Source: Eledone cirrhosa (Eukaryota). Taken from it: 64,000 nt of DNA. Below, piece by piece: positions 12,335-49,516 of the stretch (position 1 is its first letter; each line of letters starts with the position of its first letter). The stretch is from positions 106,888,001 to 106,952,000 of the forward strand of contig OZ024742.1 of NCBI GenBank assembly GCA_964016885.1, given 5' to 3'. The position numbers and the translations under genes were made by a program. The notes under the pieces are model-generated. The model made no database searches, was not told the origin of the DNA, and worked only from the letters and a program-made list of their open reading frames with translations.

Positions 12335-12449
12335 CGAGTTAATCTGAATGAGATGCAGTTTGGATTTGTGCCAAGTTAAAGTACCATTGATGCTCTCTCC
12401 CTTGTGAGGCAACTATAGAAGTACCTAGCTAAAAGTAAGTCACTCTACC
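12335..12449 (+). mobile_element. Short RTE reverse-transcriptase fragment
   Basis: Reads [35 protein letters not shown], homologous to [35 protein letters not shown] of the 41.7 kb copy. Confidence 0.85.
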
Positions 12450-15945: not shown

Positions 15946-16704
15946 ACTAACCTTGTTTAACTGCTATAACCTAGGGTTATATTACAGATATGTCACTAGG
16001 TACAATTATGAGAGTGTACAGACAAAACTGTTTAAATGTTACTATACTCTAATGACTGCCAATTCACTAACTGTACCTTCCCCATAAAATTTATAGTCTC
16101 ATGTTTATGTTATGAATTATTAATTTCCAGCAAATTTGGAGGAAGGACAAAGTTGATTAAATCACCCTCATTGTCACTAGTACTTTATTTTATCAACTCC
16201 AGAAGAATGAAAGGTGAAGGTAAACTTGATGGGATTTAAACTTAGGATGTTGAGAGTCAAAAGACATACTACGATGACATAATTATTATTATTTATGGCA
16301 CAGAAAGGTGAAAGAGAGAGAGGTTAATTCAAAATATAGCTTGGATAATTTTATCTTTCACGGGTGTTTTGTTTTTTTTCTTAAAAATCTGTGGGTATTC
16401 ACCACTAGAGACAGCTTGACTGGCTGAGTGTAAAATACATTTTGTTTAGGATAAAAACGATGGCAGGGGGGTTAGAGCCATGGAAGGGTTTTACTGAGAG
16501 AGAGAAACGTATTTAAAAAGCATTAATACATTGAAATAATTGAAAATAGAGAACCACAAAAAGGAGAGAGAGAGACGTTAATTTAAAATATAGCTTGGAT
16601 ATATATGAAAGAAAAAAATGCCAGGGTGATTACTATTAGAATATCTTCTTTAAGATGCCTGATCTGGTTTAAAACAATACTACCAATAATAACAAATCAG
16701 TTAC

Positions 16705-16789
16705 CTAATAATTGGACTAAGTTTGGATGCTTCATTTCCTTCATGATGGCAGCTTCTTCAAGGAAGTCTTTTAAAGCCATGGTATCCTC
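16705..16789 (-). CDS. Abl: Abl kinase exon, alphaC helix (EDTMALKDFLEEAAIMKEMKHPNLVQLL)
   Basis: ttacag acceptor, gtaact donor; 85 bp, phase 0-1. Confidence 0.97.
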
Positions 16790-17717
16790 CTGTAACACAA
16801 AAATAACATTTTTAATTGAAATCTTCACAAACCTCCATAACAATTCTAGACTTCCTGGGACACATAAAACTGAAAAAATTTCATGACAGTGTCCAACACT
16901 TTTTTTTTTCCTTTTTTTAACCCTTTTAATACCAGAAACTATCCCTAGTTCTACAATAGTAATTATTTTAATTTTAATATATTTATCATCATCACCGTTT
17001 AATGTCCATTTTTTCCATGCTAGCATACTCCAAACACCAGCTTGATAATGAGAAAATTAGTTATATTATTAAATCCTTCCCAATACCCCCCCCCCCCCCC
17101 CCACACACACACACCAAAAAAAAAAAAAATTAGGCAGTCTTTCATTGGAAATATGGTAAGAAAAGGGTTACTTTCTTTATTATTCTATTTTGGGAGGTGT
17201 ACACATTTGACAAGTGATTTAATCTAAGATCATGTGATGAAACTGAAACATTTACATCATGGAAAAGTTATGACAACTATTTAAAACACACATATATTCA
17301 CTTTTTGTTTTATTTTGTAACATTATTATGCTATCGTTGCAACTCACACCTGCACAGGTTTCACTGGCTCTCTATAATAATGTATTTTATAAGTGATTTC
17401 CAGGGTGTTTTAATGACAGAGACCTCAGTACTATCATGTCACCATTTTCCAGTGATAGAAGGCAAGATTTAAACTCAGAATGCACAGAACTGAAACAAAT
17501 ATTGCAAAGTATCTTGTTGCATGCCCAAACAATTTCACCAATCCATCATCCTGGACTGATACTTTATTTATTAAGCTTAAAAGGATGAAAAGCAAAGTTA
17601 ATCTCAGCTAGATTTGAACTGTATGCAACAAGCTAGAATATATACTGTAAGACTTTCAATCTGATACTCTAACAACTGCCAATTTGCCACCATATAACAG
17701 TATCATATACTATAAAG

Positions 17718-17759
17718 CAGAGGTTCTCAAAGTGGTAGCGCCCACTTTGAGAACCTCTG
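17718..17759. mobile_element. 42-bp hAT (Charlie/Buster-like) micro-MITE
   Basis: 18-bp perfect TIRs CAGAGGTTCTCAAAGTGG / CCACTTTGAGAACCTCTG around a 6-bp spacer; 8-bp TSD CTATAAAG at 17710-17717 and 17760-17767. Confidence 0.85.
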
Positions 17760-17859
17760 CTATAAAGTGTCAGATATTTTGTTGCACATCTTATGCTTTG
17801 ACTATTTCCCTGCATTGTTTAGATTTATAATAGTCTAAAACATTATTTCTTAGACAGGC

Positions 17860-17955
17860 CGAGGTTAACTTTGCCTTTCATCCTTACGGGGTCGATAAAA
17901 TAAAGTACCAGTAATGTACTGGGTAATTGCTGGCCTTGTGCCTAAAGTAGAAACA
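17860..17955 (+). mobile_element. 5'-truncated SINE with 18-bp target-site duplication
   Basis: ttgcctttcatccttacggggtcgataaaataaagtaccagt core, seen many times in the window (e.g. 4.0, 13.5, 34.2, 53.9 kb); TSD attatttcttagacaggc at 17842-17859 and 17956-17973. Confidence 0.8.
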
Positions 17956-19364
17956 ATTATTTCTTAGACAGGCATTAAAGCCTTAACACTGGTTCTATGA
18001 TGAAAAACTGTTCTAGATTTAATTTTAAACCATTCATTATAATTTTATGCAAGAACTGTTATTAAGTTTCAAACACCAGCTTAATAATGAGAAAGTTATT
18101 TATATTACTAAATTCCTCAAAATTCTTCATTATTTTCAAAGCAACTTGAAAATCACAGGCAGTGTTTTTCATTAGAAATATGCTAAGAAAAGGGTTAAGA
18201 TTACAAAATGGGATGGTAGTGGGAAGTTGCAACTAATGTATGCCTTTCCCTAGAGGGCTTAGCAACAAAATAAGCAGAGCTGTTCATTTTAACAATGTTA
18301 ATAAGGAAATACATTGGTGTGTTTTTCATATTCAAACATAATTATAATAATTACTGCTTATTTATATATTTATTCATAATAATAAAAATAATAATAATAA
18401 TTGCTTATTTATTTATTCATAACAACAACAATATTAATTATAAATATAAATTATCAGAAGACTTTGAAGAACAAATAACAATTTGTGAACTTTCTTACAA
18501 GTGTATGTTTTCAAGGAAAATTTAATCACCATTCTTAACTAGCTAACAATAGATATGAACATTTAATTAAAAGCTTAACCTAGCTCTGAATTAATTATCA
18601 AAATGTTCTTTGGTGTTAAACAATCATATAACCTGAATATCTCAATTGTGAGTGGGTCCAGGAAGTTGGTATTGGACCAAAGAGAATGTGAACTCTGTCT
18701 CCCAGAGAAAAAGTACGAATGAAATCTGACACATATTAATTAACAACAGATCCTAAAATGAATTGAATTAAACAATAATTAACCCCAAAATAATATAATT
18801 CCATGAATTAAGTGGGAGATTTGGGGTCTTTGCTACAGTGACACTTTTTCATCTAGCAGCCACAGTTGCCAGATCAATTTCATAAAAAGTAGCACAAAAT
18901 TTTTCAAAAAGTAGTAGTAGATTGTGTTAGGAAGTAGCTCAGAATGAATATTTTGGTAGTAAATTAGTAGAAGGAAGCCGCAGTATATGTAGACCAAGAA
19001 AGACCTGGGCAGAGGTGGTGAGAGCTGATCACAAATCACTGAGACTTACAGAGGAGATGATGAAGGAATGCAGTGAGTGGAGAGATGCTGTGAAAAAAGC
19101 GACCCTTCCGACCCATGCAAGCGTGGAAAACGAATGTAAAAACAATGATAATGATGACGATGAAATTGATGTGATACAGAGATGTGTTTTTACTGACATT
19201 ATTTATTTTGTATATTTTATGAAATCTCTGATGACACAGGGTGGAATTAATTTCCTTGAGTCAATACTCAGATTGTAGTATAAAAGCATATCTATGTATG
19301 TATTAAAAATGGAGCTTAAGTGGGGTTTTTCACTATTTCTATTTTTCCTCACATTATTGTTGAA

Positions 19365-19472
19365 ATAAAGTGTCTTGCTGAAGGACAATGTATAGCCCAG
19401 TCCAGGAATTGAACTCGCGCCCTCACTGTTAGGCAAGTCCAATTCTCTAACCACTAAGCCCCACGCCTTCAC
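19365..19472 (-). mobile_element. tRNA-derived SINE head
   Basis: Pol III A-box-like GGCTTAGTGG and B-box GAGTTCAATTCC, followed by tgtccttcagcaagacactt; I see no complete cloverleaf. Confidence 0.7.
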
Positions 19473-19522
19473 AAAACTTCACACCTTGCTATACAGATTT
19501 TATATATAACTAATGGACTTAC

Positions 19523-19599
19523 CTTAAGTGTTTTCACAGCTACTGTTTTGTTGTATGTCTTCCATACAGCTTCATAAACGTCTCCATATTGTCCTCCAC
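19523..19599 (-). CDS. Abl: Abl kinase P-loop exon ([26 protein letters not shown])
   Basis: tcaag acceptor, gtaagt donor; 77 bp, phase 1-0; GxGxxG loop and VAVK lysine. Not shown in the ORF track. Confidence 0.97.
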
Positions 19600-20004
19600 C
19601 TTGATGAAAACAAAAACAAAAGTTCAATTATAACCACATCTTTTCTTACACAACTCTCACCTATCTTGGAAATTTGGATTTTTTTTATATATATATATAT
19701 ATATATATACTCATTGTAAATGAGGTTGGCGTTAGAAAGGACATCCAGCTGTAGAAACCAAGCCAAAATCAGTCCTGTATGAGCAAGACATGGTCACCTG
19801 ATCTGGCATTGCCCACAACAGGACAACTCATCTAACCCATGCTAGCATGGAAAAATGGACGTAAAACAGTGATGATGATGATAACATCCTCATCATTATT
19901 GTCATTTTTGCATTGAATTTTCCATTGTAGCATAGGTGGCTGAGACTTTTGGAGGCAATGTTTTAAAGCCAAATGCCCTTCCTGACATCAATCCTGTTTG
20001 TCAC

Positions 20005-20920
20005 TTCTTACGACAGTGAAACATGGGCCTTGACTGCAGAAGACCTGCAGAAGCTAGAAAGAAATGAGCTGGGTATGCTCCGATGGATGTGTAATGTTAG
20101 TGTGCTTGAGCGACAAAGTATACACAAACTGAGGGAAAAACTTGGCATAAGAGGAATTGGTTGTTGTGTGAAAGAGAGAAGACTGCGTTGGTATGGCCAT
20201 GTGATGCACATGGAAGATGGCAGCTGCATAAAAAAATGCAGAGAAACCCCAGTGGCTGGGACCCATCGAAGAGGCAGACCCAAGAAGACATGGGATGAGG
20301 TTGTAAGGACTGACATTAAAAAGCTAAACCTTACAACAGAGATGACTAAAGACTGAGAGGGAAGGCGCTACTCAGTGCTGAACAAGACTCAACCAGCAGC
20401 TTACAATGTAACCTGACCTACCCTTCCACTAGCACTGCCTAACAGTAATTATCAACATCACTATTTCATCCCCCACCCCCAACACACACATGCATTCCTG
20501 GCAGCTTCGCCTTTCCTGTGAAGTGGTTGGTGATAGGAAGGGCTTCCAGCCATGGAGTTGCCAAACAAACAAATAAAGGTTTGGGAGGACCCTTCAGTCA
20601 TGTCATGGACATGACAGCCTCCCTAATGTTGGTGATCTACATGATAAATGCACCCAGTACACACTGTAAAGTGGTTGGTGATAGGAAGGGCATCCAGCCA
20701 TAGAAATCTTGACAAACAAAGGGTTGGGTGACCCCCAGTTGTGTCAAAGGCATGATAACCTCTCCTGAGCACCCGATGGAATATGAGACTTTAAATAAGT
20801 GAGACACATATCCCTGGCTTGCTTGGGAGATCAGTGGCTCCACATAGTACGGACTTGGTCTATATAAATCTGTCCAACCCTTGCTAGCAGATGTTAAAAC
20901 GACAATGATGATGATGATGA
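20005..20920 (+). mobile_element. 5'-truncated RTE LINE (C-terminus, 3'UTR, (GAT)n tail)
   Basis: ORF 19973-20356 SETWALTAEDLQKLERNELGMLRWMC...[12 protein letters not shown]...GRPKKTWDEVV; tail at ~20903-20920. Confidence 0.9.
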
Positions 20921-21189
20921 TATGACATGTAGGGATAAAGTTTATCGATTCTAAATCAGATACACATGGCATATAAATGTGTGTGTATGTCTCACTCTCT
21001 CTTTCTCTCTCTCTATAACTCTTCCATGCTAGCATGGGTTAGATAGGACTTTTTGAGGTAATGTTTTGCAGCAGGATGCCCTTCCTGACACCAACTTTTT
21101 TAGTTGCTTCTTATATGCAAGAATAGACCGTACCTATTCTTAACTGGATATGCAGTCTACATATATATATAAAACTTCATCTTGACCCA

Positions 21190-23760
21190 CATATACCTAG
21201 GAAGACCATGGGGGCAGAGTCCTCAAATACTCCTAGCGGATCCTCAAGCAAGACCAGCCAAGCTCATGGATGTTATCCGACCATCTTGCTCAGGATCTAC
21301 CCCTGGGTCTCCTGCTGGTGGGTTTTGCCCATAAAATCTATTCTGTGAGTCTTTCCCGGGACATTTTAATCACATGCCTGGAATATTGGAGCTGTGATCT
21401 CTCAATTTCAAGAAGTAGCAGCTCTCCCTGAGCTATGCACTCTATTGAGGAACCACTTATACTCATGATCATATTCTTTCAGTCATTACCCAAGATTCAT
21501 GACCTTAGGTGAGGGTTGGCATAAATACTGAGTAGAAGATAGTGAGTTTGGCTTTTACACCTACCTCCCTTCTTCTGATTACCAAATGATGAAGCTGGTG
21601 CATTACTGTGCCAGCTCCTGCAATTCTTGCACTTAATTCAGCCTCCTGCATTCCATTACTCATGAACATGACCCCGATATACTTGAACTTCTCTACTTGC
21701 TTCAGTGGAAATCCACTCACACGTAGAGTGTACTGTGCAGGATTCTTTGTGAGGATAAGTGTCTCAATCTTCGCAGCACCAATTTTCATTCCGATCATGC
21801 AGCACTCGGCAGTAAATCTATCAAGTGCATGTCAGAGATCACTTTTTGATGAGTTAAGTAATACCATGTTGTCTGCAAATTCCAGCCAACTGATCTTGCA
21901 CATGCCAGTCTCGATACTACTTCCAGCCTGGCTGTGCATGTCAATCCTGTTCATGATGAAAATGAACAGGAGAGGTGATGAAGTCCAACACCCACATTGA
22001 ATGTTTTCAATTTAGCACCATTTATCCAAACACAAAGAAAAGGGTATTTGTATAGAGACTTTGGGGCAACAAGGAGCTGCGAACCAATCCCATACTCCTG
22101 CAGAACCTTCCACAACAGATCCCATGGAATGCAGTCATATTCCTTTTCAAGGTATATGAAACAAGAATATGCCCATTTAGCAATACTCCAACAATTTCTC
22201 AAAGACCTACTGCAATGTGAATATTTGGTCAGCTGTGCTGCGCCCGGGATGAAAACCCCACTGTCTGTCAACTAGCTTGGACTCGACAATCTCCCTACAT
22301 TTCTTTATCAGACACTTAGCATAGACTTTACTGGGGAGGTTTAACAAGGAGATCCCTCTATATTTGGAACAACCTCTCATCTCCTTTTTTGTAAATTGAG
22401 ATTATCACTCTCGACTGCCATTACTTAGGTGTCTTCCCAGAGATCCAGGCCACCTGTTACACTCAAGTCAGCCAGAGAATAGCTTCTCTATTTAAGTCTT
22501 TTAACATCCCGGGCTGAATCTCATCCTCCTCGGCTGACCACAATTGAGCTTTTTAATTGCTCTTGTGGCCTCAACCACCAAGAGGTTAGTCATCACTCTC
22601 AGATGCACATCAGCAGATGCTGTTGTGACTGGGTTTAGTGGATCAGCAATGTATTCTCTCTGCCTTGTGAGGATGTACTTCTCTGAAAAAAGGAGAACTC
22701 CTGATGTGTTCCTGATAACAGGAGTGGGGGATGACTTCTTATAAAGATTTGCTGATCTGAAGTCAGATTCCAGCTTAACCCCAAAGTCTTCCCATGTCTT
22801 AATCTTGGGTACCTTTACTTTCTCTGCTGCGACTTTTCATTCCTGCTTGTACCGCAAATGCAAGAAGTAGGAATAATTTCTAAGCCAAGCTTTGTAAGCC
22901 TCCTTCTTTGTTTGGATGGCATCTTTAACCACTTGATTGAACCAAGGGATTCTTTAGCGACCCTGCATCACACCGAGCTGCTTTTGCTCACAGCATTTAA
23001 CAGCTGAAGCAAACACTGCCGTGCTGAACAGTCTACTCCATTTCAACATCCTTAGTTTGCTCAGGAAGTTCTCTGAATTTGGATGCAATAGTATCAGCAA
23101 ACCTGTTCCTGACTTTCTTATCTGCCAGAGCTTCCCATTTTACACTATAGGGCAAGCTGGACCTGCAAGTTTTGTGGGCTCTCTTAGCTTTAGATAATCT
23201 CTGGCTGCAGATAACTAGATGATAATCAGTTGACAGCTCAGCCCTTCTTTTAACACAAACATAGAATCAAAGTGATCAGAGACAATAAAAAAAATCAGTT
23301 ATTAATCTCTGTCCCTGATTCCCCTTATACCATGTGTATTTATGGGTATCTTTGTGCTGGAAGAAGGTGTTCATAATAGAGAGCCCATTATTAGAACAGA
23401 AGTCTAATAAGGCCTTTCCATTCATATTTAGATTGGAATTACCGTTCCCTTCAATCACTTTCTTCCATGCCAGGTGATCAGTGCCAACATGTATATTGAT
23501 GTCTACCATGAGGATATATGACTCAGTCTTTACATCTAATGCTACAGTGACTTCATCAGACTCTTTGTTTGGTGCATTAACTTGCACCACCCACAGAGGC
23601 CTATCTTTCAATCTAAGCTTCAAGAGGCAAATCTTCCCTCCCAATGGGATCTAGTTCATAACACATTCTGACAGCCAGGAGCTTGTGAGTATGCCCACTC
23701 TTGACTGTGCAGTCTTTTCTGGCACCATACTTGAATAGTAGAGCTTCCATCCTCCATTCA
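21190..23760 (-). mobile_element. Degenerate near-full-length RTE-clade LINE (endonuclease plus RT), a different subfamily
   Basis: Broken ORFs: VQVNAPN...MNTFFQHKDTHKYTWY (endonuclease); YRGISLLNLP, CFIYLEKEYDCIPW, LEFADNMV and LKQVEKFKYIG (RT). Confidence 0.85.
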
Positions 23761-23765
23761 AATCT

Positions 23766-23821
<56 letters not shown>

Positions 23822-23950
23822 TGTAAAACATTAATTCAGCATGGAAGACATATATATATGTGTGTAAAAGGTAAACAGAAATAACAACACAATCGGTACA
23901 GTATATGGAAGGGATATATTAGGTTAACGCTTGATATAGCAGGAAGAGGG

Positions 23951-23986
23951 TCTTAACGTTTCAGATGCTAGTCCTTCATCAGAAGA
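23951..23986 (-). ncRNA. Candidate minimal type I hammerhead ribozyme (Penelope-like pLTR remnant)
   Basis: UCUU-CUGAUGA-AGGACUAGCAUCU-GAAACGUU-AAGA: intact core, 4-bp stem I, short stem II, palindromic stem III. The cleavage triplet appears to be GUU (suboptimal). Confidence 0.55.
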
Positions 23987-24459
23987 AAGAATGAGAAATA
24001 AGATAGATTGAGGGGACGGGCAGGTTGGAAATGGAAAAAAATGTCTTTAGATAAAAATAACAGGTCCATTCATGTTGACATCTCTTATAAGTCTCCCATG
24101 CTCTCTGACACCAAATCTTTTAGTTGCTTCTTACAACATGCAGTTATACAGTGTACCTATTCTAAAGTACTTACTTATATATTAGATAATCAGATGAGGA
24201 AGCAGTGTCCATGACTTTCTCGGATTCATTTCAATTGAAGATATTTTAAAATTGTGTATGTAGTGTTTATTGGGGTGGGCAATCCAGATTACAATTTTGG
24301 GGGAGAAAGGACTAGATAAAATGTCCAGTGGGGTCAAGGAATTAGATTGTAGTAATTTTACATCTCAACAGCTCAATACTATAATTATAGATAAAATTTG
24401 GCAATTTTCCTCCACCAAAAATCTCTGTAGTTGACATTCACTGCTACATTCTGAAGCTA

Positions 24460-24930
24460 CCACCGGCTTCCCAGCACTACATGTTATAATTATCTCCTTC
24501 CACCACTACAACCTGCAGCTATCTCCTCCATCACCCCTACATACAATAGTTATGCCCCCACTCTTCAATCTATAGCTGTCCTCCACCTCTACACACTATA
24601 GCTATCTCCTACCACCACTACATACTATAACTACCTCCCACACCACTACAATCTATAGCTACCTCCCACCACCACTGCATATTATAACTATCTTCCCCCC
24701 GCCACCACCACCACTACAATCTATAGCTACCTCCCACCACCACAACATATAATAACTATCTTCACCCCCCACCACCACCACTATAATTTATAGCTATCTC
24801 CCCCACCACTATATACTATATCTATCTCGCTCCACCACCACCACCACTATAATTTATAGCTATCTCCCCCACCTCTATATATATATATAGCTATCTCACT
24901 CCACTCTACAACCTATAACTATCTTTTACT
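24460..24930. repeat. Degenerate ~30-bp minisatellite (ctatagctacctcccaccaccactaca-like)
   Basis: Directly visible imperfect tandem units. Confidence 0.8.
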
Positions 24931-25171
24931 ATGACACTTCCTGAAAATGCCCCCCCCCCCCACACACACACACTATATTTCCTTGTTCCCTCACCCCATG
25001 TGACCACTATTTCTACGGTCACCACTACCACCAGCACTATTACTTCATATACTATGGATTGTGTTATCATCAGTGCGTCTTATACTCTAGCATTTAAACA
25101 CAGAGAGCCACTACATCCACTCACCATGCCACCACGGTATCACTGAGAGGCAAGAATGATAAGATCAAAGG

Positions 25172-25188
25172 AACAACAACAACAACAA

Positions 25189-25229
<41 letters not shown>

Positions 25230-25245
25230 GCAGCAGCAGCAGCAT
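25172..25245. repeat. (CAA)n(CAG)n microsatellite
   Basis: Direct reading. Confidence 0.9.
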
Positions 25246-27954
25246 CAATGCTTTGATAACTTTCAATCAGGGAAATAGTTTAATAATAATCAGATTACAT
25301 TATGAAAATGAAGTTACAAGTTGCTATGACAACTGCTGGTTTTCAACAACACAGATGGGGTGATGGTGGTGGGAAGAATATCAGTGCAACCAATTCCAAA
25401 TCCATAATCTCCAAACAAAGCTGTTGTGGGCTTTTTTAATGTTATTTGATATGAGACCAGAGCATAGAACCAAATGGCTGTAGATTTATTTATATGACAA
25501 CAGATTAGACCCCTGGACCGTTTTTGCCAGATAATTTGTTGTTGTTGGTGGTGGTGGTGGTGCTGTCAACTCAAGCCGAACACAGACCTATGATCAAAGA
25601 CATTCCAGTACTGACAAGTCTGTTGTTTTTTGTGGGTTTTTTAGTCATATCCAAGACCACATTATTCATTGTATCCACTCTTTTCATAGGGTGTGGTTTT
25701 AGAAGGTTGCGTGACTACCTAGATGTTCACCTTGTTAGCTCAATAAGGTTTTATTCTGTTGGTGCCACAACAAAAAAGCACCCAGTTTAACCTGTAAGGT
25801 GATTGATTGTATTGGTGTCATGACTAAAAGCAGTCAGTCCATCCTGTAAGATGGCAGTGTTGGTGCCATGAAAAAAGCTTCTAGTTCATGCTGAAAAGAG
25901 GTTGGCATTAGGAAGGGCATCCAGTTGTAGCCAAAAACAGATTGTATGAGGAAAACAAAGTCACCTGAACTGTCTAGCCACATAACATGACAACCCGTCT
26001 AACACATGCAAGCATGGAAAATAGACATTAAATGATGATGATTATGATGAGTTGGTAGTAGAGAGATGGTAACTATGGCATTTTCAAACCAGATTCTTTC
26101 ACACTAGAAGTCAGCTAAAACTTCAGCAGATTTTTTTTTTAACTTGATAGTCAAAGAGAGAGAGAGGCAATGCCTGTGACCCTTTACAGAGCCATCAAAA
26201 ATGATCTGAGAGAAAATGTAAGGTATCCTCAAGCTGAAGACTTCACCCAAATCTTACAATAATGTGAGCTCTGTTAAAAGCACCCAGGGGCCATATTATG
26301 GTATAAAACCAAGCAATGGATTAAGTCTACCACCCCAGTAGGTCGCAGTGGAATTTAAATTTAGGACATAAAGAGGTAAAACCAGTACTCCAAAGTATCT
26401 TGTGTGAAGCTCTAATAAACTCTGTCAATCCACTGCTCTGTACTGGTATTTTATTTTATTGATCGCAAAAGAATGAAATACAAAACTGACCTCAATGAGA
26501 TTTGCAGCCAGAGCACAGAATGCCAGAACTAATACCATAAGCCATTTTGCTCTACACTCTACCAACTTTGCTAATTCATTGCTATTGTTGTTTAACAAGC
26601 AAATATCCCTCAAATAAAAGGACACACTAAATACACTTGTCTGGGAAAAAGAAAATGACTGGGTGTACATGGAATGGGCCTCCATCAGTTTCAATGATGA
26701 GCGTTCCAATTGTTCAACCAATGGAATGGCCAGCACATGAAATTAATGTGTATGTGGGTGACCATTCCACAGATAGTGTACCCTTAATGTAATTATCAGA
26801 TTCAGCATGACACAATGTATGACAAGTCTGACCCTTTGAATTACAGGTATAGTTCATCAGACAGGCTTCTAAACAGTGTCTACCCAATTTCATTCACAAG
26901 GCAATGGGTCAACCTGAAGATATGTTAACTGACACTTGCCCAAAATGACACGGTTGGAAAGCTTCCAACACAGTTGTCTCCTCTGAAAACACACAAAACC
27001 CAGGGTAACATATTAAATCTACCACTCAAGAATAATTAGTCCGACAGGCTTTCTTGAAGTTCCCAGCAGCCCAATTTCACACACATGGCTTAAATTGATT
27101 TGAACCTATGGTAGATGATGATGGTCCAAGATACTATGCAACACCTGAATCATACTTCTTTCCTCCCTTTTCCCCCACTAGGCTTGGAGGCCCTGCAGAA
27201 AGATCATGGGCAGGTTCCTTCCGTTATTGACTAAGCCATAAAAAAACTATACAAACCCTATACAAACCAGTATATTACAGGTATGTCTATGTTACAGATG
27301 ATATATCTGCTATTCTATAGAGATAACAGACAAAAAGAATCTTGGCATGGAACAGCTGCTTAGTTTATTTTAATCTCAGAAACACAAGGAATCCAACTGG
27401 ACACTGTCCAGATCTGACTAAAGAATGACCAAACCTGGAGTGGACATTACCTTGGTCTGAACTTGAGAATTCCATGCTGGGTAAACAGTATTAAGACATG
27501 GACTAGACACTATCCAAACTTGAAATAGGGAGCATTCAGATGTGACAATCTATTATTAGACACCACCCAATTTGGTTCAGCACTTCAACACAATCGACTA
27601 TAGCTGACATTCATAACAATATATCAGGATTCAATAGAAAGGTTGTGAGATGAGGATGGAAGAGCAATAGTGTACAAGAGGGAAAAGTGAGGGATAGAAA
27701 AGTTGAAAGAGCGAAGTAAAATAAGAGAAGCATGTATATATATATATATCCTTTTGTCACCTTACTTCACACTGTTAGAGAGAGAGAGAGAGAAAGAGAA
27801 AGAAAAGCTGAGAGGAGGAGAAATATATATATATATATATATATATCTTTTCCAACCCTTGTTAAAAGGGAAAGCCGGCGTTAAATGATGATAACAATTT
27901 TATATTTATTTATTTATCTATATATATTTTCATTTTACGTCCACTTTTCCCTGC

Positions 27955-28179
27955 TAAGGAAAAGAAACTGAAAATGCAACTGGAGTCTTTTAAAAATATT
28001 TATTTACTTTACCAGTTTCACAGTTCTTATGATTTTCAAAAGTAAAATTGAGATGGAGCATTAGAAACACAAACTCTCCATCTCAATTTTACTTTTGAAA
28101 ATCATAAGAACTGTGAAACTGGTAAAGCAAATAAATATTCTTAAAAGACTCCAGTTGCATTTTCAATTTCTGATCCTTA
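27955..28179. repeat. Long inverted repeat, ~104-bp arms, 17-nt loop
   Basis: 27955-28058 is the reverse complement of 28076-28179, with about 5 mismatches by hand comparison. Confidence 0.92.
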
Positions 28180-28395
28180 TATGTTTACCCATGTGGGACA
28201 TTTTTAAAAAAAACCTCATTTTCATTTATACACAATCTACTTTTAGAAACATTGAGTGATAAAAATTGTTTGAATTTGAAAGAAGCACCAATGTTAAAAT
28301 AGTCTAATAAGTTGTGCATATAAACCCTGAAGTTAGAAAAAAAAATTGTATAAAGAGGGAGGGGAGCAGGTCTAGAAGTGAAGAATTAAGCATAC

Positions 28396-28591
28396 CTAGT
28401 CGATGCTTCATAGCAATCTCCGTCCTCTCCACTTCCCACTTGTCTGGCTCAGGGCTAAAACCAAAAACTGTCGGTTTGTTTCGTTTTGGTGCCGGGTATA
28501 AGAGCGTTGTAACTAAACCATCTGCATGAATAGAATGGTGGTGGACTAATTCAGCCAATGTGTTAAATTTGTGCTCTGCTGTAACATAAAC
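28396..28591 (-). CDS. Abl: Abl SH2 C-terminal half, SH2-kinase linker and kinase start ([65 protein letters not shown])
   Basis: ttccag acceptor, gtatgc donor; 196 bp, phase 0-1; the Abl-diagnostic [12 protein letters not shown] and [10 protein letters not shown] motifs. Confidence 0.98.
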
Positions 28592-30124
28592 CTGGAAGTA
28601 CAGAGTCAAGAGAGAGAGAGAAAGAGAGTGAGAACATAATTAAAGGTTTATATTTCCACATAGATATCAGTGGGTTTAATCAAATTAACAACAACATTAT
28701 CATCGATTTTATGTCTGCTTTTTCCATAGGTTAGAAGAGGTTTTTTTTAAGCCTACCAATATGTTACCCAGGATTTTTAAAAAAATCATTATTTCAAAAC
28801 TGGATGTACCATCACCCAGTGTCTCTTTCAAAGTAGAGTGAAATGATTTAAAGAAACATTATTTCAATACTGGACATTGTGTTGTATAAATGCTGTCTTT
28901 GAACATAAAATGAAGTGATTTAAAGAAATGTTATTGCAATATTGGACATACCATTATCCAGGATTTGAAGAAACAATCTCAAAACTGAGGTGTTCAGTTA
29001 GAGAGAATACCTTGATTTCCAGTAGCAGCATCCTTAGGGGTAGACAGGTACACTGGTTTTCACCTGACTCTCATTTTTGGCTCTGGAACATTTTTCAGAC
29101 AGATCCCAGTAACTGTTTCTGCTGGCAGATTAAACATACTAAAAGGCTGGATGCTTGAAGAGGAGATGTGCATTGTCAAGCATTTCTAAGGCCTACTGAA
29201 ATGCCATGATGGACACACAGTCAAACGTCTAGAGTGACACCCCAACGACTGGCTGAACCAGTTACAGGAATTTAAAGGATTGATGTAGCAGCGACATATC
29301 TTGAACTACTACACTAGGGGACATAATGCATATACAAACATCACTGCTTGCTTTGTACAGCAGTATTGATATGAAGATGTTTACAGTGACTGACATGCAT
29401 ATGCATACAAACATGTGCATATATATATATAGAGGGAGAAAAACCATGCCAAACTGGAATGTAAGAGCAAGACATGGACAGCTACCCTGTCTACTCTAAG
29501 AATAGGACAACACATGGAATAGACATAAAATGATGCTGGCATTGATGATGATAAACTTCCTTACAGTTTCTATCTACCAAATATGGTAAACAAAATATTT
29601 CACAAAATTCAAATAATAAGTTTATATGCCCTGAGGTGATATGCATTCTAACGTTTCACAGGCAGAGCCCTTTTTCAGAGAACTTGAGCACGAATCTAGG
29701 ATGAGATGGGGCATAAAATCTTAAATAGGAACCCTGCCTGTAACATTAGTATCCACAACTCCCTTCAGAATACAAACTTATTCAAATTTAAAAATACAAA
29801 CAACAAAAGAAAAGAAATACAAAAAAAGCAGGGCTAGAGTTGTCAAAACAGATAAATGGTGGCAGTTTCTTCATGTGGTATGTCCATCCTACCTGATGAT
29901 TGACAAACCAGAAACCTTCCTAACTGATAAAATATAATGGGAAGATTTTTTTTAGTCAACCTAAATAAATAAAAAATGGTCTCAACATATTTTTGGGTCG
30001 TTTTTTAATTTTAATTTATTTTTGAAGGTGTTGTATATATATATATATATATATTATATATATTATATATATATATGCACATAGCTTAGTGGTTAGTGCA
30101 TTGGCCTTGCAATCGAAAGGTTGC

Positions 30125-31670
30125 CCGAAAGTGTAGTGGCATGTCGCCGGACCGAGTTTCGGAAAGTATGTCGATGTTGGTAGAGCCGGGTCTTGAAGTC
30201 ACACGCGGTTAATCCTATATAAGCTTTGTTGGAGGTGTCCGTCCTCGTGTTGCACTGGTAGATCACGTTACGTTCTAGGCATTTGTTGTTGAGGGGGCAC
30301 GTAGATCTATCAGGGCAGTTACACCTCCTGGTCGGCTCTCCACTGATGTCTAGGTTATTTCTTCCATAGGGGTTGAGTTTTTTGTTGTTTGAGGAGACGA
30401 TGTTGTGTGTGAAGTTAGGTGTGGTGCTGTAAGAGAGTTTGATGCTGTTTTTGTTGATTATGTTGTGGTAGCGGTGTTATAGTGGGAAGTGTTTTTCGAG
30501 GAGTCTAAAGAAGATTTTCCCTGATAGGTGTTGCCACCTCGGCATTATGGGGAGAATTGAACCACGTTACGTTGCGTCAGCGGTGGTGTCGCCTGCTGGT
30601 TCTGTTAAGGGAAGCTGGATAAAAGGATATTTCCTCCCGGAAGCCACTCCGCTTGAGGGCCTGGTTGTAATGTGGCGCGTGTTCGTCGAATATCTGCTCA
30701 TTAGCGGAAAACGAGATATGCAGAGGGAGATGTTTTTAACCAGGTTATTGGTGATGTTTCTAGGATGGTTAGAGCGGCGGTGGATGTAGTGCAGGTTGTT
30801 GTTTGGTTTTCTGTATGGGTAGTACAGATCATTTTCGAGGTTAATGGTAACGTCCAGGAAATTGACTCGGGTTAGGGACGTTTGTAGGGTGATTTTAAAT
30901 CCCCAGTCCCGGAAGAAGTTGATTAGTTGTTTACGGACCCGGTCTGTACTACTGGGCTTGTACCCTTTGAGGGTGAGGAGCCCATCATCCCAGTACAATC
31001 CACTGCCGAATGCAGGAAATATTTCAGTGAGTTTAAATAGTAGGAATAATCCTATAAGATCTGTGACTTCGGCTGAATCCGTCGCGCCCATACTTACGTT
31101 GAAGGGGGAGTCAGGAGCTCTCTTTATCCACTTGGAGTTGTCGAAAAGAAGGACTGTCTTCCTGGCGTGGAGAATGATATTTCTTTCCTGGTCAGTGATG
31201 GGTGTGAGTGTTTCGGCAAAGTCCAAGGCGGCTGTAAGGAGCAGTAAGGTAATAGATGCATAGTAACTCTCTATGTCAAACCGGATGAATTTTTTTGTGT
31301 CTCATTTGTCCTCCATATTCCTGAACCATGAGATTACTTCCTGGGTGCTGACCCATAGGCTAAGTCTCACGTTTTGCTTAACTTTTGGTATAACTCAGTC
31401 TAGAATCTTTTTACTGATTCTCCCTATGTCCGACTTCGTTGGGCTTATAAGCCTAATGGATGGTTTGCGGTCGTAGTCGGATTTGTGGTCCTTCAGTGTG
31501 AAGTAGGGAGTCCGTGGGTCTAGGGGTTCAGTGCGGTCGGCGACCCCAAGGCTGGAGGTAATTTGTTGTCTATTTCGATTTATGTCCTCGATAATTGAAT
31601 GGTTAGCCTTTTTATAGGTGGAGTTTAGGCTGCTCCTGATCAGTGTGTGGTATCTGTCAGGGTACATATC
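30125..31670 (-). mobile_element. Penelope-like element (RT plus GIY-YIG endonuclease), frameshifted; the Cys-rich linker suggests the Neptune clade
   Basis: YFTLKDHK...RLISPTKSDIGRISK; FNVSMGATDSAEVTDLIG...GLYWDDGL...VNFLDV; RCNCPDRSTCPLNNKC...VIYQC...AYIGLT...FKTRLYQH. Confidence 0.88.
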
Positions 31671-32015
31671 ACTTTAAATGCTTGACCGCTCCACTCACTC
31701 CCCTATTGTTCTACAGGCAAGTTCAGCCACCCCTACCTCCCACCAGATGCCATGATAGACTTATTTGTGTTTACAACAAATCTTAGCCAATCCTCTTGAC
31801 AACTACAATCTTCCCATATAAGGAAGTACCCCCTTGACAAGTTCGGCTATTTATTCACCAGGCTAAACATTCTAATTTAGTCCAGAAATAGCAATCGAAA
31901 CGGCTTGAGCTCTGCCGTCGGGATCATACTTTTTCCTATTTCCCGGTCTACTACTCTAAGTATTGAGTACTCTGGTGTGTTATGGTCCATCTGGTTCCTT
32001 ACCACATTTCCTTTG

Positions 32016-38557: not shown

Positions 38558-38598
38558 CATATATATATACATGTATACATATATATATATACATATAT

Positions 38599-39425
38599 AT
38601 CATCATCATCATCATCATCAACGTTTAACGTCCGTGTTCCACGCTTGCATGGGTTTGGACGGGGGTAGTCCCACTTGAGGCAAGAGTGATTGTCTTGCTC
38701 GCATAGGACTGTCTGGCAGGTTTTCTACAGTTGGATGCCCTTCCTAACACCAACCACATTTACAGTGTGGGTCTGGGAGGTTTTTACCGTGTTGCCTACA
38801 CGGCCACATTACAGCGTGGACTGTGTGTTTTTTTGTCGTGACACCTACACGATCTCATTTGTTTCGGCCCGGATGGCGCGGCACCAACATAACTTTACAT
38901 AGGACGGGGTGGTGTGGATGGGGTGGGGGTGGTGGTGGTGGGACGGGGTGTATTTTGTTAGAGATGCCTACTGGCAAGGCGGGTCTTCTCTGTTACTGAG
39001 TACCGCCAAAGGTCTCGGTCCAGTGACATTGTCTTGGAGAGGTGTAAGTGTGTGAGGTCGGAGTTTATCAGCTCGTCCCAGGTTTTTCTAGGTCTGCCTA
39101 TTCCGTGGCTACCGTCTATCTTTATTGCCCTGCACTTTGTTATACAGCTATCGACTTTCATGCGCATCACGTGTCCATACCAACGTAGCCTTCTCTCGAG
39201 TAAACAACATCTGATCCCTCTTATCTCTAATTTTTTCCTTAGTTCGTTTATGCTTTGCCGTTCACGTATATTACTGTTACACATCCAGCGGAGCATGCAA
39301 GCTTCGTTCCTCTCTAGTCTGCGTATATCCTCTGCACACAATGCCCAGGTCTCACTGCCATGCAACATTGCTGTTCGTATGCAGGCATCGTACAACCTGC
39401 CTTTCATTTTTAGGGAGAACCCTTT
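38599..39425 (-). mobile_element. Young 5'-truncated RTE LINE (copy A) embedded in TA satellite
   Basis: Uninterrupted [15 protein letters not shown]...KTRLASRHL* followed by 3'UTR and (GAT)n tail; both ends abut (TA)n-type repeats. Confidence 0.93.
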
Positions 39426-40104
39426 ATATATACATATATATACATATATATATATACATATATATATACATGTATACATATATATATATACATATATACA
39501 GATATATATATACATACATATATATATATACATATATATATATACATATATATAAATAGATATATATATACATACATATATATATATACATATATATAGA
39601 TATATATATACATACATATATATAGATATATATATACATACATATATATAGATATATATATACATACATATATATATACATACATATATATATATACATA
39701 TATATATAAATAGATATATAAATAGATATATAAATAGATATATAAATAGATATATATATACATATATATAAATAGATATATATATATACATACATATATA
39801 TATATACATATATATAAATAGATATATATATACATACATATATATATATATAAATACATATATATATATATAAATACATATATATATATAAATATATATA
39901 TAAATAGATATATATATACATACATATATATATACATACATATATAAATAGATATATATATACATACATATATATATACATACATATATATATACATACA
40001 TATATACATACATATATATATACATATACATACATATATATATACATACATATATATATACATACATATATATATACATATACATATATATACATATACA
40101 TATA
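39426..40104. repeat. (TA)n-derived satellite block with TACA, TAGA and TAAA variants
   Basis: Direct reading; includes a 12-bp aatagatatata unit repeated about four times. Confidence 0.95.
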
Positions 40105-41760
40105 CATCATCATCATCATCATCATCACCGTTTTACGTCCGTTCTTCCACGCTAGCATGGGTTAGACGGGTTGTCCTGTTGTGGGCAGTGTCTGGTCGGC
40201 TGACCATGCCTTGCTCATACAGGAACTGATCTGGCTTGATTTCTACAGCTGGATGCCTTTCCTAACACCAACCTCATTTACAGTGAGTGCTGGGTGCTTT
40301 TTCGTGGCGCGCCTACACGTCCACTTTACAGTGTGGGCTGGGTGCTTTTTTGCCGTGGCACCTCCACGACCACCTTGCGGTGGGGGGGGGGGGGCATATT
40401 GTTTATATGCTTCAGCATGTACCCATGGGAGGTCGGGTACCCTGTATTACTGCGTGACGCCAGAAGTCACGGTCGTGTGTCATTGACTTTGAGAGGTGTA
40501 GTTGGGTAAGGTCGGCTTTTATCACCTCATCCCAAGTCATCTTGGGTCTCCCCACTCCGCGGTTTCCATCAACTTCTAGTGCTCTGCACCTTTTTATGCA
40601 GCTGTCATCCTTCATACGCATCACATGTCCATACCAGCGTAACCGCCTCTCCTGCACGCAGCATTTGATTCCTCTTATGCTCAGTCTCTCTCTCAATTCC
40701 TTTATGCTTTGTCGTTCACGTATATTACTGTTACACATCCATCGGAGCATGCAGGCTTCGTTTCTCTCTAATCTACGTAAGTCTTCCACCTTCAGCGCCC
40801 AGGTCTCACTACCATGCAACATCGCTGTTCGGATACACGCATCATACAGTCTGCCTTTCATTCTGAGGGAGAAGCCTTTTGCAGCTAGCAGTGGTAGTAG
40901 TTCCCTAAACTTCTTCCATCCCGTTCTTACCCTAGTTATTGTACTTTCTGAGCACCCACCTCCATTGCTAATTCGGTCACCTAGGTAGCAGAAGCTGTCT
41001 ACTGTTTCTACAGGGCCCTCCCAGAGATTGGTGGTACTTGTTTCCTGTGGCTGTTTGCTTGCTGTTTCAGCACAGCTGCTGCATGTGAATCCTACATTCT
41101 TAATTAAGCTTCCTGAGATCCCGCTACATCTCTTGTGTACCCATTGTTTGCATTTGGGGCAGAGAATGGAGTTCCTACCTACACCTTTCCTACATACTGA
41201 GCAAGGCCATTTCCCTGAGGGGATCTGGGTTCTGTTTTCTCGTCTACTTATAAGGACCTTAGTCTTTGTCATGTTGACTTTGAGGCCCTTTCTCTCTAGT
41301 CCCTGCTTCCAGGTTTGGAATTTATTCTCTAGTTCTACCATAGATTCAGCTATGAGTGCGAGGTCATCAGCATACAGGAGTTCCCATGGGCATCCGGTCT
41401 TAAACTCCTCCGTTATTGCCTGCAGGACTATGATGAACAGGAGAGGGCTAAGAACAGAGCCCTGGTGGACCCCAACCTGTACGCTAAATTCCTCGCTATA
41501 CTCATTGCCAATCCTAACTTTGCTGACTGCTCCCCTATACATGGCTTGTACCGCTTTCACAAGCCATTCATCTACTCCTAGTTTTCTAAGAGCCCACAAG
41601 ATTACTGCACGTGGAACTCTGTCAAAGGCTTTCTCAAGTTCGACAAATGCCAAGTAGAGTGGCTTACTTTTAGCTAGGTACTTTTCCTGTAATTGCCTCA
41701 CAAGGAAGAGGGCATCAGTGGTGCCTTTCCCTGGTACAAACCCAAATTGCATCTCGTCTA
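40105..41760 (-). mobile_element. Young RTE LINE, 5'-truncated inside the RT domain, ORF uninterrupted to its stop
   Basis: [18 protein letters not shown]...[14 protein letters not shown]...LLYADDL...CSVCRKG...RRLRWYGHV; (GAT)n tail at 40105. Confidence 0.95.
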
Positions 41761-42692
<932 letters not shown>

Positions 42693-42694
<2 letters not shown>

Positions 42695-44100
42695 CTCTTT
42701 TACTCTTTTACTCTTTTACCTGTTTCAGCCATCCGGCTGAGGCCATGCTGGGGCACCGCCCTTGTTGCTACACATTTTATCTCCAGCCTGTATAGGTTGG
42801 CCACTGGTGTAGGAGGGAGTTTGTTGCTGCTGCCCTTAGGTTTCCCTCGTGTCTTGCTGTGGGCTCATCCGGGATCCTGGATAACAAGGTGTCGAGATGT
42901 TTCTTAAAGACATCCACCTCCACGTCATGCAAGTCTCGCAGATGCCTCGGCAGCCTGTTGAAGAGTTGAGGGCCCCTGAATCCCAGGCTATTGCAATACC
43001 TGCTCCTTATTCTAGTGGAAGACGGGACCTTTGCACCACACAGTGACGTCCTGTTCGACGGTTGGTCCAGCTCCCAATGCCAAAGTTTGGTGCTAGTCCC
43101 TCCAGGATTTTCCACATGTAGATCACTGCGTATCTCTCCCGTCTTCGCTCCAAGGAGTAGAGGTTCAGTTCCTTCAGCCTCTCCCAGTAGCTTGTCTCCC
43201 TCATCTTGGCAATCCTCTTGGTGTAGCTTCGCTGGATTGCCTCAAGCTCTGTGGTTATTTTGACACTATGGGGTGACCACAGCTGGGAGCAGTAGTCCAG
43301 GCGGCTTAGGACAAAAGTCCTCCACAGTGTCAACATGGTGTCTCGATCTCTTGTAAGGAAAGTCCTCAAGATCCAGCCAGCGAATCGTCTACATGCTGTC
43401 GCCACCTTCATGATGTGTGAAGAAAAAGATACATCATCGCTCATGTCTATGCCCAGGTCTCGTATCGATTTTGACACGGGGATATCGGTCCCTCCTGGTC
43501 CTGTGTAGCTGTGTTCCGCTATATTTGTGTTTGTGTTTGCAGGTTTGTATTGTAGGGCTTGGAATTTGCCAGCATTAAACTGCATGTTGTTTTCTTCCGC
43601 CCATCTGTATATGGCATCCAGATCCTGCTGTAAGAGGGCAGCGTCAGCCGGGTTTTTGATTGCCTGTGCTACCTTAGTGTCATCAGCATAGCTAGTGGGG
43701 GATGTTGTTGCATGCACCACAGAAGGCATGTCCGAGAGAGCCACCAAAAACAGTAGTGGTCCCAGGACTGTCCCCTGAGGCACCCCACTTGTTATCGGTG
43801 TCTCCCTCGAGAGGGCCCCATTTGCTGCGACTGCCTGGCTTCTGTCCCTCAGGAAGCCATGCAGCCACTCACCTACTTTTCCAGTTATGCCGAGTCCGTG
43901 TAGTTTGTGACATATCATTCCGTGGTCGACCTTGTCAAAGGCCTTCGCAAAGTCAAGATATATCACGTCTACATGTCAGCTGTCTAGTAGCTGTCTCAGT
44001 ACCCAGTCGTAGTGATGTAGCAGCTGTGTAAGGCAGCTTCTTCCTGGGCGGAAGCCATGTTGCGTGCTAGTCAGGCGGTCATTTTCTTCGAGGAAAGTGA
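42693..44100 (-). mobile_element. 5'-truncated CR1-group LINE RT with (GTAAAAGA)n tail
   Basis: [15 protein letters not shown]...IYLDFAKAFDKVDH...SGVPQGTVLGPLLF...YADDTK...LDYCSQLWSP; one stop and one frameshift; tail tactcttttactcttttactctttt on the plus strand. Confidence 0.92.
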
Positions 44101-44530
<430 letters not shown>

Positions 44531-44531
<1 letters not shown>

Positions 44532-45225
44532 GTGCTCGGTGTGCAGGAAAGGCGCAGGCAGAAACTCCATTCTATGTCCCAAATGCAAAGCACGGGTGCA
44601 CAAAAGATGCAGTGGGATCACAGGTAAGCCAACCAAGAACATAGATTCCACATGTGGCCGGTGCTCCGGTGCAACAAGTAGCAGCAAGTGCCCACAAAAC
44701 ACCAGCTCCTTCAATTGCGCAGAGGGCTCCACAGAAATAGTGGACAGCCTCCGCTACCTGGGCGATAAAATCAGCAGTGGGGGAGGGTGCTCTGAAAGTA
44801 CCGCAGCTAGAGTCAGAACTGGTTGGAAAAAGTTCAGAGAGCTTATACCACCATTAGCCGCCAAAGGGTCCTCACGAAAAATAAAAGGCAGGCTGTACGA
44901 TGCCCGCATACGAACAGCAATGCTGCATGGCAGTGAGACCCGGGCACTGTGTGCAGAGGACACACGCAGACCAGAGAGGAACGAAGCCTGCATGCTCCGC
45001 CGGATGTGCAACAGTAACACACGTGAACGGCAAAGCACAAACGAACCAAGGAAAAAATCAGAGACAAGAGGGATCAGATGTTGTTCACTCGAGAGAAGGC
45101 CACGTTGGTATGGACACGCGACGCGCATGAAAGTCGACAGCTGCACAACAAAGTGCAGGGCAACAAAGATAGACGGCAGTCACGGAATAGGCAGACCCAG
45201 AAAAACCCGGGACGAGCTGACAAAC
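44531..45225 (+). mobile_element. Internal RTE LINE fragment (copy B), truncated at both ends, T>C hypermutated
   Basis: Colinear with copy A, but conserved W, L, I, V, F and C residues read R, P/S, T, A, S and R; no 3'UTR or tail; bounded by TA satellite. Confidence 0.93.
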
Positions 45226-49062
<3,837 letters not shown>

Positions 49063-49254: not shown

Positions 49255-49348
49255 GGGGATTTTTTTCCTTTGTTTCTGTGCCTTTCCTTTCTTCTATCCT
49301 ACGCCATTTTGTTTCTGTGACACACAGAAACAAAATGGCGTAGGATAG

Positions 49349-49500
49349 GTGTTAGGAAGGGCATCCAGCTGTAGAAAACCCGCCAGACAGTCCTATGCGA
49401 GCAAGACAATCACTCTTGCCTCAAGTGGGAAAACCCCCGTCCAAACCCATGCAAGCGTGGAACATGGACGTTAAACGATGATGATGATGATGATGATGAT
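49349..49500 (+). mobile_element. RTE LINE 3' end with (GAT)n tail running into TA/TACA repeat
   Basis: Near reverse-complement match to the 3'UTR of copy A (38600-38750). Confidence 0.9.
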
Positions 49501-49516
49501 ATACATATATATATAC

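Follow-up and report, generated by a model that had tools for sequence, protein, structure and literature searches.

The window analysed here is a stretch of 64,000 nucleotides of Eledone cirrhosa (C3:106,888,001-106,952,000), and the whole assembly of 3.0 Gb in 1,796 contigs was searched with sequences derived from it. The window carries part of a tyrosine kinase gene, which we take to be Abl-like from its motifs, and several copies of a young LINE family, one of which (fragment B) is the subject of this analysis. The relevant features are the following.

5600..28591, minus strand: host exons encoding an SH3-SH2-tyrosine kinase, coordinates approximate
14800..15941, minus strand: older copy of the LINE family (80-82%), inverted to fragment B, in a different intron of the host gene
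30093..31673, minus strand: broken frames that presumably resemble a Penelope-type reverse transcriptase (RT) with a GIY-YIG-like end
38596..39426, minus strand: copy A, young, tailed, 5'-truncated and unedited (A>G 1, T>C 2 relative to L002)
40426..41757, minus strand: the 40.4-kb copy, of another lineage, 76% to the young one, with an open frame
42696..44097, minus strand: unrelated LINE fragment (RVT_1), adjoining the left TA array
44098..44531: left TA array, 434 nt, G-interrupted on the plus strand (C 8, G 27)
44532..45225, plus strand: fragment B, a 694-nt internal ORF piece of a young RTE-like LINE
45226..49061: right TA array, about 3.8 kb, C-interrupted on the plus strand (C 307, G 20), no direct repeat of the left array
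49348..49503, plus strand: short tailed 3' end of the family, unedited, 95-96% alike

Fragment B extends from the PHD finger of the element to near the end of its ORF, with the LINE part beginning at 44532 and not at 44531, and it lacks about 490 nt of the 3' end together with the (GAT)n tail. The next upstream host exon ends near window-equivalent position 101,526 (L115:7526), with exons also at L115:7526-7800 and in L116, and fragment B lies inside a 73-kb host intron, antisense to the pre-mRNA. Because the host gene is on the minus strand, T>C on the plus strand is A>G in the host pre-mRNA. Copy A, which is of another haplotype than fragment B, is inverted to it and pairs with 44863-45225 only; the 40.4-kb copy is likewise inverted, is located 3.3 kb away, spans all of fragment B and shows no ADAR skew. 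The host gene holds three inverted copies, and the rest of the assembly thousands, with which double-stranded RNA could have formed; the edits single out none of them. Self-complementary stretches are also present in the host introns, at 27955-28179 (225 nt), 38024-38231 (208 nt) and 49279-49363 (85 nt).

The left junction of fragment B has the look of ordinary 5' truncation, with a TA array as its flank. The element 3' end and (GAT)n tail expected of target-primed insertion are absent here and present in the edited copies L062-L065 described below. Any target-site duplication is masked by the TA arrays, and the flanks differ in type (G on the left, C on the right), as they do at the ordinary copy L021. 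No TA-like complementarity that could have served in priming extends beyond about 2 nt on either side. Within 38490-49597, five TA arrays are C-interrupted on the plus strand (C:G 10:4, 59:14, 109:6, 307:20 and 10:4) and the left array alone is of the G type (8:27); it may have arrived with fragment B or may have been inverted. The idea that edited TA arrays were part of the same RNA was dropped, as there is no special signal and all long arrays but one are of the C type.

Several simpler origins of fragment B were also considered and rejected. The 3' end at 49348-49503 finds no support as its lost end, being unedited and only 95-96% alike, and neither does a single fold-back insertion comprising fragment B and copy A, in which the haplotypes differ, copy A is unedited and two older elements lie in between. 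Twin priming is excluded by polarity, because both halves would be sense-edited. As a source copy only L111 came into question, the one copy with an identical 5' junction; it was rejected, since four subfamily sites differ and roughly one match of this kind is expected by chance.

Full copies of the family contain one ORF of about 1,036 aa encoding an AP endonuclease, an RT and a PHD-type finger, followed by a 3' UTR of about 400 nt and a (GAT)n end. One such ORF is given below.

L144:2694-5801: ORF with Exo_endo_phos at 26-243, RVT_1 at 556-756 and PHD at 772-815

The anatomy is that of a single-ORF endonuclease-RT element, with the 5' end unmapped and a short upstream ORF possible. We take the family to be RTE-like from this anatomy (single ORF, tandem-repeat tail) and not from a tree. 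The 120 listed homologues, at 34-54% identity, all come without clade names, and the PHD-type finger between the RT and the C-terminal part is common to many of them at 45-54% identity. The short tandem-repeat tail is (GAT)n in nearly all copies, and insertions are mostly in TA arrays or other simple repeats. Tails were found in 97 of 98 ordinary copies (29/29, 29/29 and 39/40, the last set being chosen from the first 100 listed places on C1); tail-less ordinary copies do exist, namely L157 and the L123 copy.

The substitution pattern of fragment B was evaluated against the column majority of 29 young copies (L002-L030), which are the non-self loci obtained in the fragment search when the best 40 of 5,346 candidates were scored, and each of which differs from the majority at 1-3 positions over 694 nt. 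Fragment B has 59 differences and no indel. As many as 57 of the 59 are T>C, so that 57 of its 156 T are changed, corresponding to A>G on the antisense strand; the remaining two, T>G at 44876 and G>A at 44883, are private changes. The C alleles at 44709 and 45138 are also C in 9/29 young copies, and may have been inherited rather than edited, as judged from the alignment.

The original prediction rested on an alignment of 44863-45225 with the reverse complement of 39063-39425 (363 nt, no indels, 34 differences, 30 of 71 T converted to C), and our recount agrees with it, as well as with its antisense 5' neighbour counts (U 19/26, C 6/29, A 4/10, G 1/6). One of the 30 changes, at 44923, is a subfamily variant. 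The bias was also claimed to continue through 44531-44862, and indeed 28 T>C are found within 44532-44862 in addition to 29 within 44863-45225. Against the majority of the young copies the context bias persists, and the signal is stronger than first described. On the antisense strand A>G occurs at 37/56, 9/25, 10/54 and 1/20 of the A preceded by U, A, C and G, respectively, and at 21/38, 17/45, 13/47 and 6/25 of those followed by G, U, C and A. The spectrum (57/59 at p=0.25) has P=5e-32, the 5' context gives a chi2 P=4e-8 (UA versus GA, P=2.5e-6), and a 3' G differs from the rest with P=0.011 (21/38 versus 36/117), with 11/13 edited in TAG. The edit rate is flat along the fragment (13/32, 17/39, 15/49, 15/37).

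ADARs prefer their 5' neighbour in the order U>A>C>G, and fragment B displays the features of ADAR hyper-editing: one-strand A>G density, 5' G avoidance with 5' U preference, and 3' G preference. As far as the letters can tell, the pattern is a textbook ADAR signature, from which we infer ADAR itself as the enzyme. In the same segment of the diverged 15-kb copy only ordinary T>C changes without the pattern are seen (U 6/54, G 0/19), and it is absent from the 40.4-kb copy as well (U 9/55, A 12/25, G 4/20). The frame of fragment B is open and free of stops; 31/230 residues are altered, among them four W>R and five L>P. Conserved W, L and I are hit, in agreement with the earlier view that fragment B is the derived state.

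To our A>G mirror probe the genome returned four matches, of which 4/4 are hyper-edited on the sense strand and 4/4 are tailed. The edited tailed sense copies lie at these places.

L072:6170-8735 (C7:81.24 Mb): edited tailed copy, sense
L064 (C1199): edited tailed copy, sense
L075:7930-8521 (C24:13.73 Mb): edited tailed copy, sense
L077:6640-7288 (C2:377.09 Mb): edited tailed copy, sense

L063 carries 265 A>G among 269 differences over 2,566 nt, L064 has 77 A>G and 3 other differences over 995 nt, and L065 has 18 A>G and 1 other over about 580 nt. For L062, where the reference is the nearest fetched copy, from an older subfamily, 103 of 127 differences over 705 columns are A>G; it has 22 further substitutions, mostly C>T/G>A, plus G-run expansions. 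The trinucleotide rates of fragment B and L063 are closely correlated (Spearman 0.84, P=4e-5), TAG and AAG being at the top in both: TAG is edited at 11/13 sites in fragment B and 37/47 in L063, and AAG at 3/4 and 50/70. In L063, 65/212 A are edited in the 3' A context. L063 and L064 have 30 edits in common, out of 51 and 50, where 15.4 would be expected, implying separate events at the same preferred sites. G runs made by editing in L062 and L064 have been lengthened or homogenised, e.g. a 9-G run by 4 in L064; slippage in DNA, the reverse transcription step or sequencing error may be responsible.

The edits are not evenly distributed along the tailed copies. The last 200 nt before the tail are unedited in L063, L064 and L065 (0/58 each) and lightly edited in L062 (12/58), and in the former three editing climbs over the next 0.2-0.8 kb upstream of the edit-free end. 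The edit-free last 200-400 nt may represent the RNA region that the RT must recognise; alternatively, poor pairing of divergent 3' UTRs may account for it.

Whether these copies could have been edited in place differs among them. No other piece of the family of at least 150 nt is present in the 70 kb around L062, and editing in place therefore fails for this copy. L065 has two 99% inverted neighbours 1.1 kb away, which cover its last 412 and 339 nt and are both unedited; in its last 210 nt 0/63 A are edited, compared with 13/64 beyond the partners (P=1e-4). Since the partner-covered end is unedited and the neighbours are clean, editing in place fails here too, and insertion of an edited mRNA fits both copies. 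The situation of L063 is different. A 93% copy in inverted orientation lies about 22 kb from it and stops about 330 nt short of the tail, near where the edits of L063 fade, and for L063 editing in place may still apply. Among the filtered ORFs in 70, 130 and 80 kb around L062, L063 and L065, no clear exons were seen by eye, and the 5' flanks of L062 and L065 are ordinary and non-array. L064 lies on the 22-kb unplaced contig C1199 (L074, 22,379 bases), which ends inside it and may be a single read. A near-perfect inverted repeat is also seen on this contig (1394-2202/3105-3911).

Edited copies are rare. In the assembly, 7,243 exact matches were counted for a 34-nt motif in its unedited form, located about 510 nt from the tail, and the five edited copies correspond to 0.07% of these, which is a lower bound because the modelled probe sensitivity is 50-88% per covering copy. 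A T>C probe at about 510 nt from the tail (at least 2 of 4 edits) has 5 matches, i.e. fragment B and four copies without skew, and one at about 1,800 nt from the tail has 0. When a second A>G probe was placed about 1,200 nt from the tail, L063 was again the only match, and a skew scan of 8,885 alignments among the fetched loci disclosed no edited element beyond fragment B and L062-L065. Similarity searches with edited queries returned unedited copies only and are a poor detector of edited ones. Taken together, the edited copies look like a rare class of retrotransposed ADAR-edited LINE RNA, with fragment B as its odd member.

Public sequencing data were also compared. No record identified as RNA was found for the segment. 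Seven runs matched, with shares of 0.32 (X1) and 0.05-0.06, and four were compared; their relation to the assembled animal is not on record. One alternative letter is given in the run table for 19/57 fragment B sites, and at 13 of these 19 the B-like letter stays below 1% in both deep runs, X2 and X3. In X1, whose kind is not on record, B-like letters amount to 1.3-15% at 9 of those 13 sites. They occur in low-depth contigs with differing patterns, none equal to fragment B, and the 90% filter of the comparison favours B-like contigs. They hint at antisense-edited family RNA, matching what such RNA would be expected to give. In X2/X3, B-like letters at 44630, 44648, 44732 and 44963 reach 0.00-0.02% and were counted neither for nor against fragment B. 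The four compared runs contained no piece spanning fragment B and no contig with G at 44876, although the filter drops records and this gap proves nothing; polymorphism, low coverage or artefact may each lie behind these results.

We tentatively conclude, with a confidence that falls just short of even, that fragment B is a DNA copy of one RNA molecule, the hyper-edited antisense partner in a duplex of LINE transcripts, and that reverse transcription placed this copy in a TA array. The process would begin with sense and antisense transcripts of the abundant young LINE forming long double-stranded RNA, for which more than 7,000 near-identical copies in both orientations provide the basis. ADAR, as the signature indicates, would then deaminate 30-45% of the adenosines on both strands, and a reverse transcriptase, most likely the family's own, would read inosine as G. 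Edited LINE mRNA would in this way give the tailed A>G copies by ordinary target-primed reverse transcription, as the four sense copies indicate. On a rarer route, which the anatomy of fragment B suggests, the RT would copy the antisense partner strand, from another locus, into a tail-less, TA-bounded T>C fragment, either through template jumping or with a nicked TA array, the preferred target of the family, as primer. As many missense changes, though no stop codons, arise from the edits, the copies would presumably be dead on arrival. At about 0.1% of copies, the phenomenon would be a side product of RNA editing rather than a main defence.

Several observations support antisense capture. The trinucleotide rates of fragment B agree with those of the sense copy L063; the four tailed sense copies are independent events, for two of which editing in place fails; and fragment B is without the tail that ordinary copies almost always have. 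Its edit density is similar where copy A can pair (28/70 T) and where it cannot (28/84), and both copy A and the 40.4-kb copy are unedited. The B-like letters of X1 (kind not on record) are those that antisense-edited family RNA would give. On the other side, the antisense class has a single member, no source copy was found in the assembly (L111 being of another haplotype and the private changes unique), junction complementarity for priming is no more than about 2 nt, and L063 could have been edited in place by its inverted copy. The tail-less ordinary copies L157 and the L123 copy allow later tail loss, and all five edited copies are known from the assembly alone, L064 being at the end of an unplaced contig. 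The original prediction held that ordinary retrotransposition of an edited LINE mRNA cannot explain fragment B, and this holds in view of its antisense polarity and missing tail. Its first hypothesis, reverse transcription of a hyper-edited antisense or intronic RNA into the genome, is retained as the best reading, fragment B being antisense within a host intron, but its expectation of both polarities in tail-less fragments was not borne out, since 4/4 sense copies are tailed.

Antisense capture also has to contend with the polarity of fragment B, which editing of the host pre-mRNA would produce as well, and with the inverted partners that share its intron. A write-back in place might therefore be considered, in which a LINE inserted antisense in the host intron, its pre-mRNA paired with the inverted 39- and 40.4-kb copies and became hyper-edited, and the edited intron RNA templated the repair of a break in the left TA array, so that the DNA was replaced and the LINE 3' end lost. 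We regard this as unlikely, though it retains appreciable weight. The host gene is on the minus strand, as it must be for T>C to be A>G in the pre-mRNA; the 76% inverted copy spans all of fragment B from 3.3 kb away in the same intron; the left end resembles an ordinary 5' truncation into a TA array; and a source copy elsewhere in the assembly was not found. However, the polarity match has a prior of one half, a deletion of more than 1 kb is needed besides the conversion, and the partner arms are unedited. Where fragment B is edited is unrelated to its local identity with any of the partners (0.748 vs 0.744), and a second mechanism is needed for L062 and L065, where editing in place fails. That germ-line RNA-templated repair wrote intron edits of the host pre-mRNA back into their own locus, rewriting about 700 bp of chromosome with the TA arrays as priming and break sites, is a rather doubtful claim.

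It is improbable that the pattern reflects an artefact or a single molecule, such as RNA-based polishing, a stray cDNA read joined via the TA arrays, or a somatic molecule at thin coverage. Such an origin would suit the TA arrays of 0.4 and 3.8 kb that flank fragment B, the position of L064 at the end of a 22-kb unplaced contig, and the RNA-like edited words of the fragment B segment in a public run. Against this, each of the five copies with the signature is on a contig of its own, the 5' flanks of L062 and L065 are ordinary and not arrays, and editing ends where the elements end, fading ahead of the tail in L063, L064 and L065. The all-or-none pattern over 2.6 kb at 10% divergence also seems unlike what a consensus of short RNA reads would produce among more than 7,000 near-identical copies. 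The C>T/G>A changes and G-run expansions of L062, counted against the nearest fetched copy, are such as DNA ageing would give. Fragment B is a true feature of the assembly, and probably of the DNA.

The second hypothesis of the original prediction, an APOBEC-like defence in which ADAR deaminated dA of the nascent cDNA in the RNA:cDNA hybrid during target-primed reverse transcription, with the tail lost later, is in our view very unlikely. Its polarity fits, since sense T>C is a dA change on the minus-strand cDNA, and deamination of DNA in RNA:DNA hybrids by ADAR is possible in vitro (PMC5389660). A 2021 review left ADAR deamination of cDNA open for retroviruses (PMC12925331). Here, however, four probes detected no tailed T>C copy at a modelled sensitivity of 50-88%: the probe at about 510 nt returned fragment B and 4 copies that are not hyper-edited, compared with 7,243 unedited matches, and the one at about 1,800 nt returned 0. 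The sole T>C copy is tail-less, as is only 1/98 of the ordinary copies; its edits are flat along the fragment; and the tailed edited copies have the opposite polarity. The four tailed edited copies are sense A>G, which suggests that the RNA was edited before reverse transcription, and the hypothesis finds no support. That the C alleles are an ordinary subfamily, or that fragment B is ancestral and the other copies decayed by C>T, is almost certainly wrong: 2/57 C alleles are common to 9/29 young copies, but three fixed C alleles of fragment B together match fragment B alone in an assembly probe, neither the 29 best loci for the whole fragment nor the 29 non-self loci for a 116-nt edit-dense query (best 40 of 280) include another T>C-rich copy, the private changes at 44876 and 44883 have no second occurrence in the assembly, 31 residue changes fall on conserved W, L and I, and CpG decay is unable to explain a pattern in which only 10/56 changed T precede G. 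The multicopy C-bearing subfamily that would have undermined the original prediction is thus refuted within the assembly.

Retroprocessing of edited mRNA in plant mitochondria and kinetoplastids also makes RNA edits DNA-encoded through cDNA. Those organellar cases involve C-to-U or U-indel editing with gene replacement, whereas here promiscuous A-to-I editing acts on a nuclear repeat RNA. A close parallel is seen in the A-to-G hypermutated sequences of Rous-associated virus as well as of avian leukosis virus (Felder 1994; Hajjar and Linial 1995, via PMC12925331), where ADAR-type edits of up to half the adenosines likewise passed from RNA into DNA by reverse transcriptase. The avian cases are exogenous, were seen in culture and affect short inverted-repeat/U3 regions in sense, while the present element is a resident non-LTR one edited over up to 2.6 kb; fragment B differs further in representing the antisense strand and in being without the element's own priming end (PMC12925331). 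Endogenous retroviruses hypermutated by APOBEC, reported in a screen by Knisbacher and Levanon (PMC4866542) and also by Zaranek et al. (PMC2873906), are similar in that single copies received a dense, strand-specific and context-dependent burst, were integrated and had their ORF damaged. In these vertebrate LTR elements the change is G>A from C-to-U in cDNA, (PMC4866542, PMC2873906), and the present one, A>G/T>C, affects a LINE whose RNA was most likely what was edited. The screen covered LTR elements only, found other mismatch classes to be very rare and considered invertebrates devoid of DNA editing (PMC4866542).

Hyper-edited repeat RNA shows the same clustered A-to-G changes in repeats and strong 5' G depletion (Porath et al., PMC5625713), with octopus among the highest hyper-editing levels in that survey. 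That pattern comes from RNA reads compared with an unedited genome, and the present one is in the assembly itself. The 3' A enrichment ascribed to invertebrates as a group (PMC5625713) is absent in fragment B (6/25) and partial in L063 (65/212). Mammalian L1 and Alu offer another likeness, since ADAR binds and restricts a non-LTR element (PMC5224506, PMC3415434). L1 RNA was unedited over the 2.5 kb read and the restriction was independent of editing (PMC5224506), and new Alu inserts totalling 52 kb had no editing (PMC3415434); unlike these, edited LINE RNA has apparently been inserted here. RTE-2_OV of Octopus vulgaris (PMC9115989) is likewise a single-ORF endonuclease-RT LINE with a microsatellite 3' end, and is apparently active. 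Compared by description, its length is 1,109 aa, its finger is of the C2H2 type and its microsatellite begins at the ORF end (PMC9115989); in our family the ORF has about 1,036 aa, the finger that follows the RT is PHD-type and the 3' UTR measures 400 nt. Literature on ADAR-hypermutated LINE copies in genomic DNA was not found in a search that left most subscription journals and supplements outside its reach, and the supplements of PMC4866542, in which other mismatch classes are tabulated, may bear on the question.

We therefore place fragment B among the deaminase-scarred retroelements. ADAR acting on RNA is the likely agent, and the proposed antisense capture is unusual. The data suggest that edited RNA occasionally returns to DNA by being copied. 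Provided that the copies are real DNA, they would be direct fossils of A-to-I edits that passed from RNA to the genome, ADAR would be active on LINE double-stranded RNA in cells with retrotransposition, inosine-rich RNA would still be retrotransposable, and a non-mRNA (antisense) strand could be captured. A class of A>G/T>C LINEs would fill a gap, since prior screens concerned G>A in LTR elements and left invertebrates blank, and L1/Alu inserts were unedited in cell culture. A simple three-letter alignment census can test for this class in any genome. Should write-back prove true, heavily editing genomes would hold a countable fossil record of such events. As read from the sequences, the class would comprise about 0.1% of copies with one antisense case, and it is apparently without function.

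Some further traits of the family were observed in passing. One subfamily (L049, L052, L054, L055, L057, L060 and L062) has about 120 nt of its 3' UTR duplicated in tandem; the duplicated 3' segment of L062 had been considered as an RNA template switch, which was rejected because the duplication is subfamily-wide (L049, L052, L054, L055, L060). L103 and L104 (C1:342.35 and 341.60 Mb) have identical junctions 750 kb apart, representing either a segmental duplication or an assembly duplicate. Many young copies at L155-L169 (C1:7.4-9.6 Mb) are inside a short-unit satellite array and not in TA repeats. At L101, a direct repeat of at least 22 non-array bases is present on both sides, a long target-site duplication.
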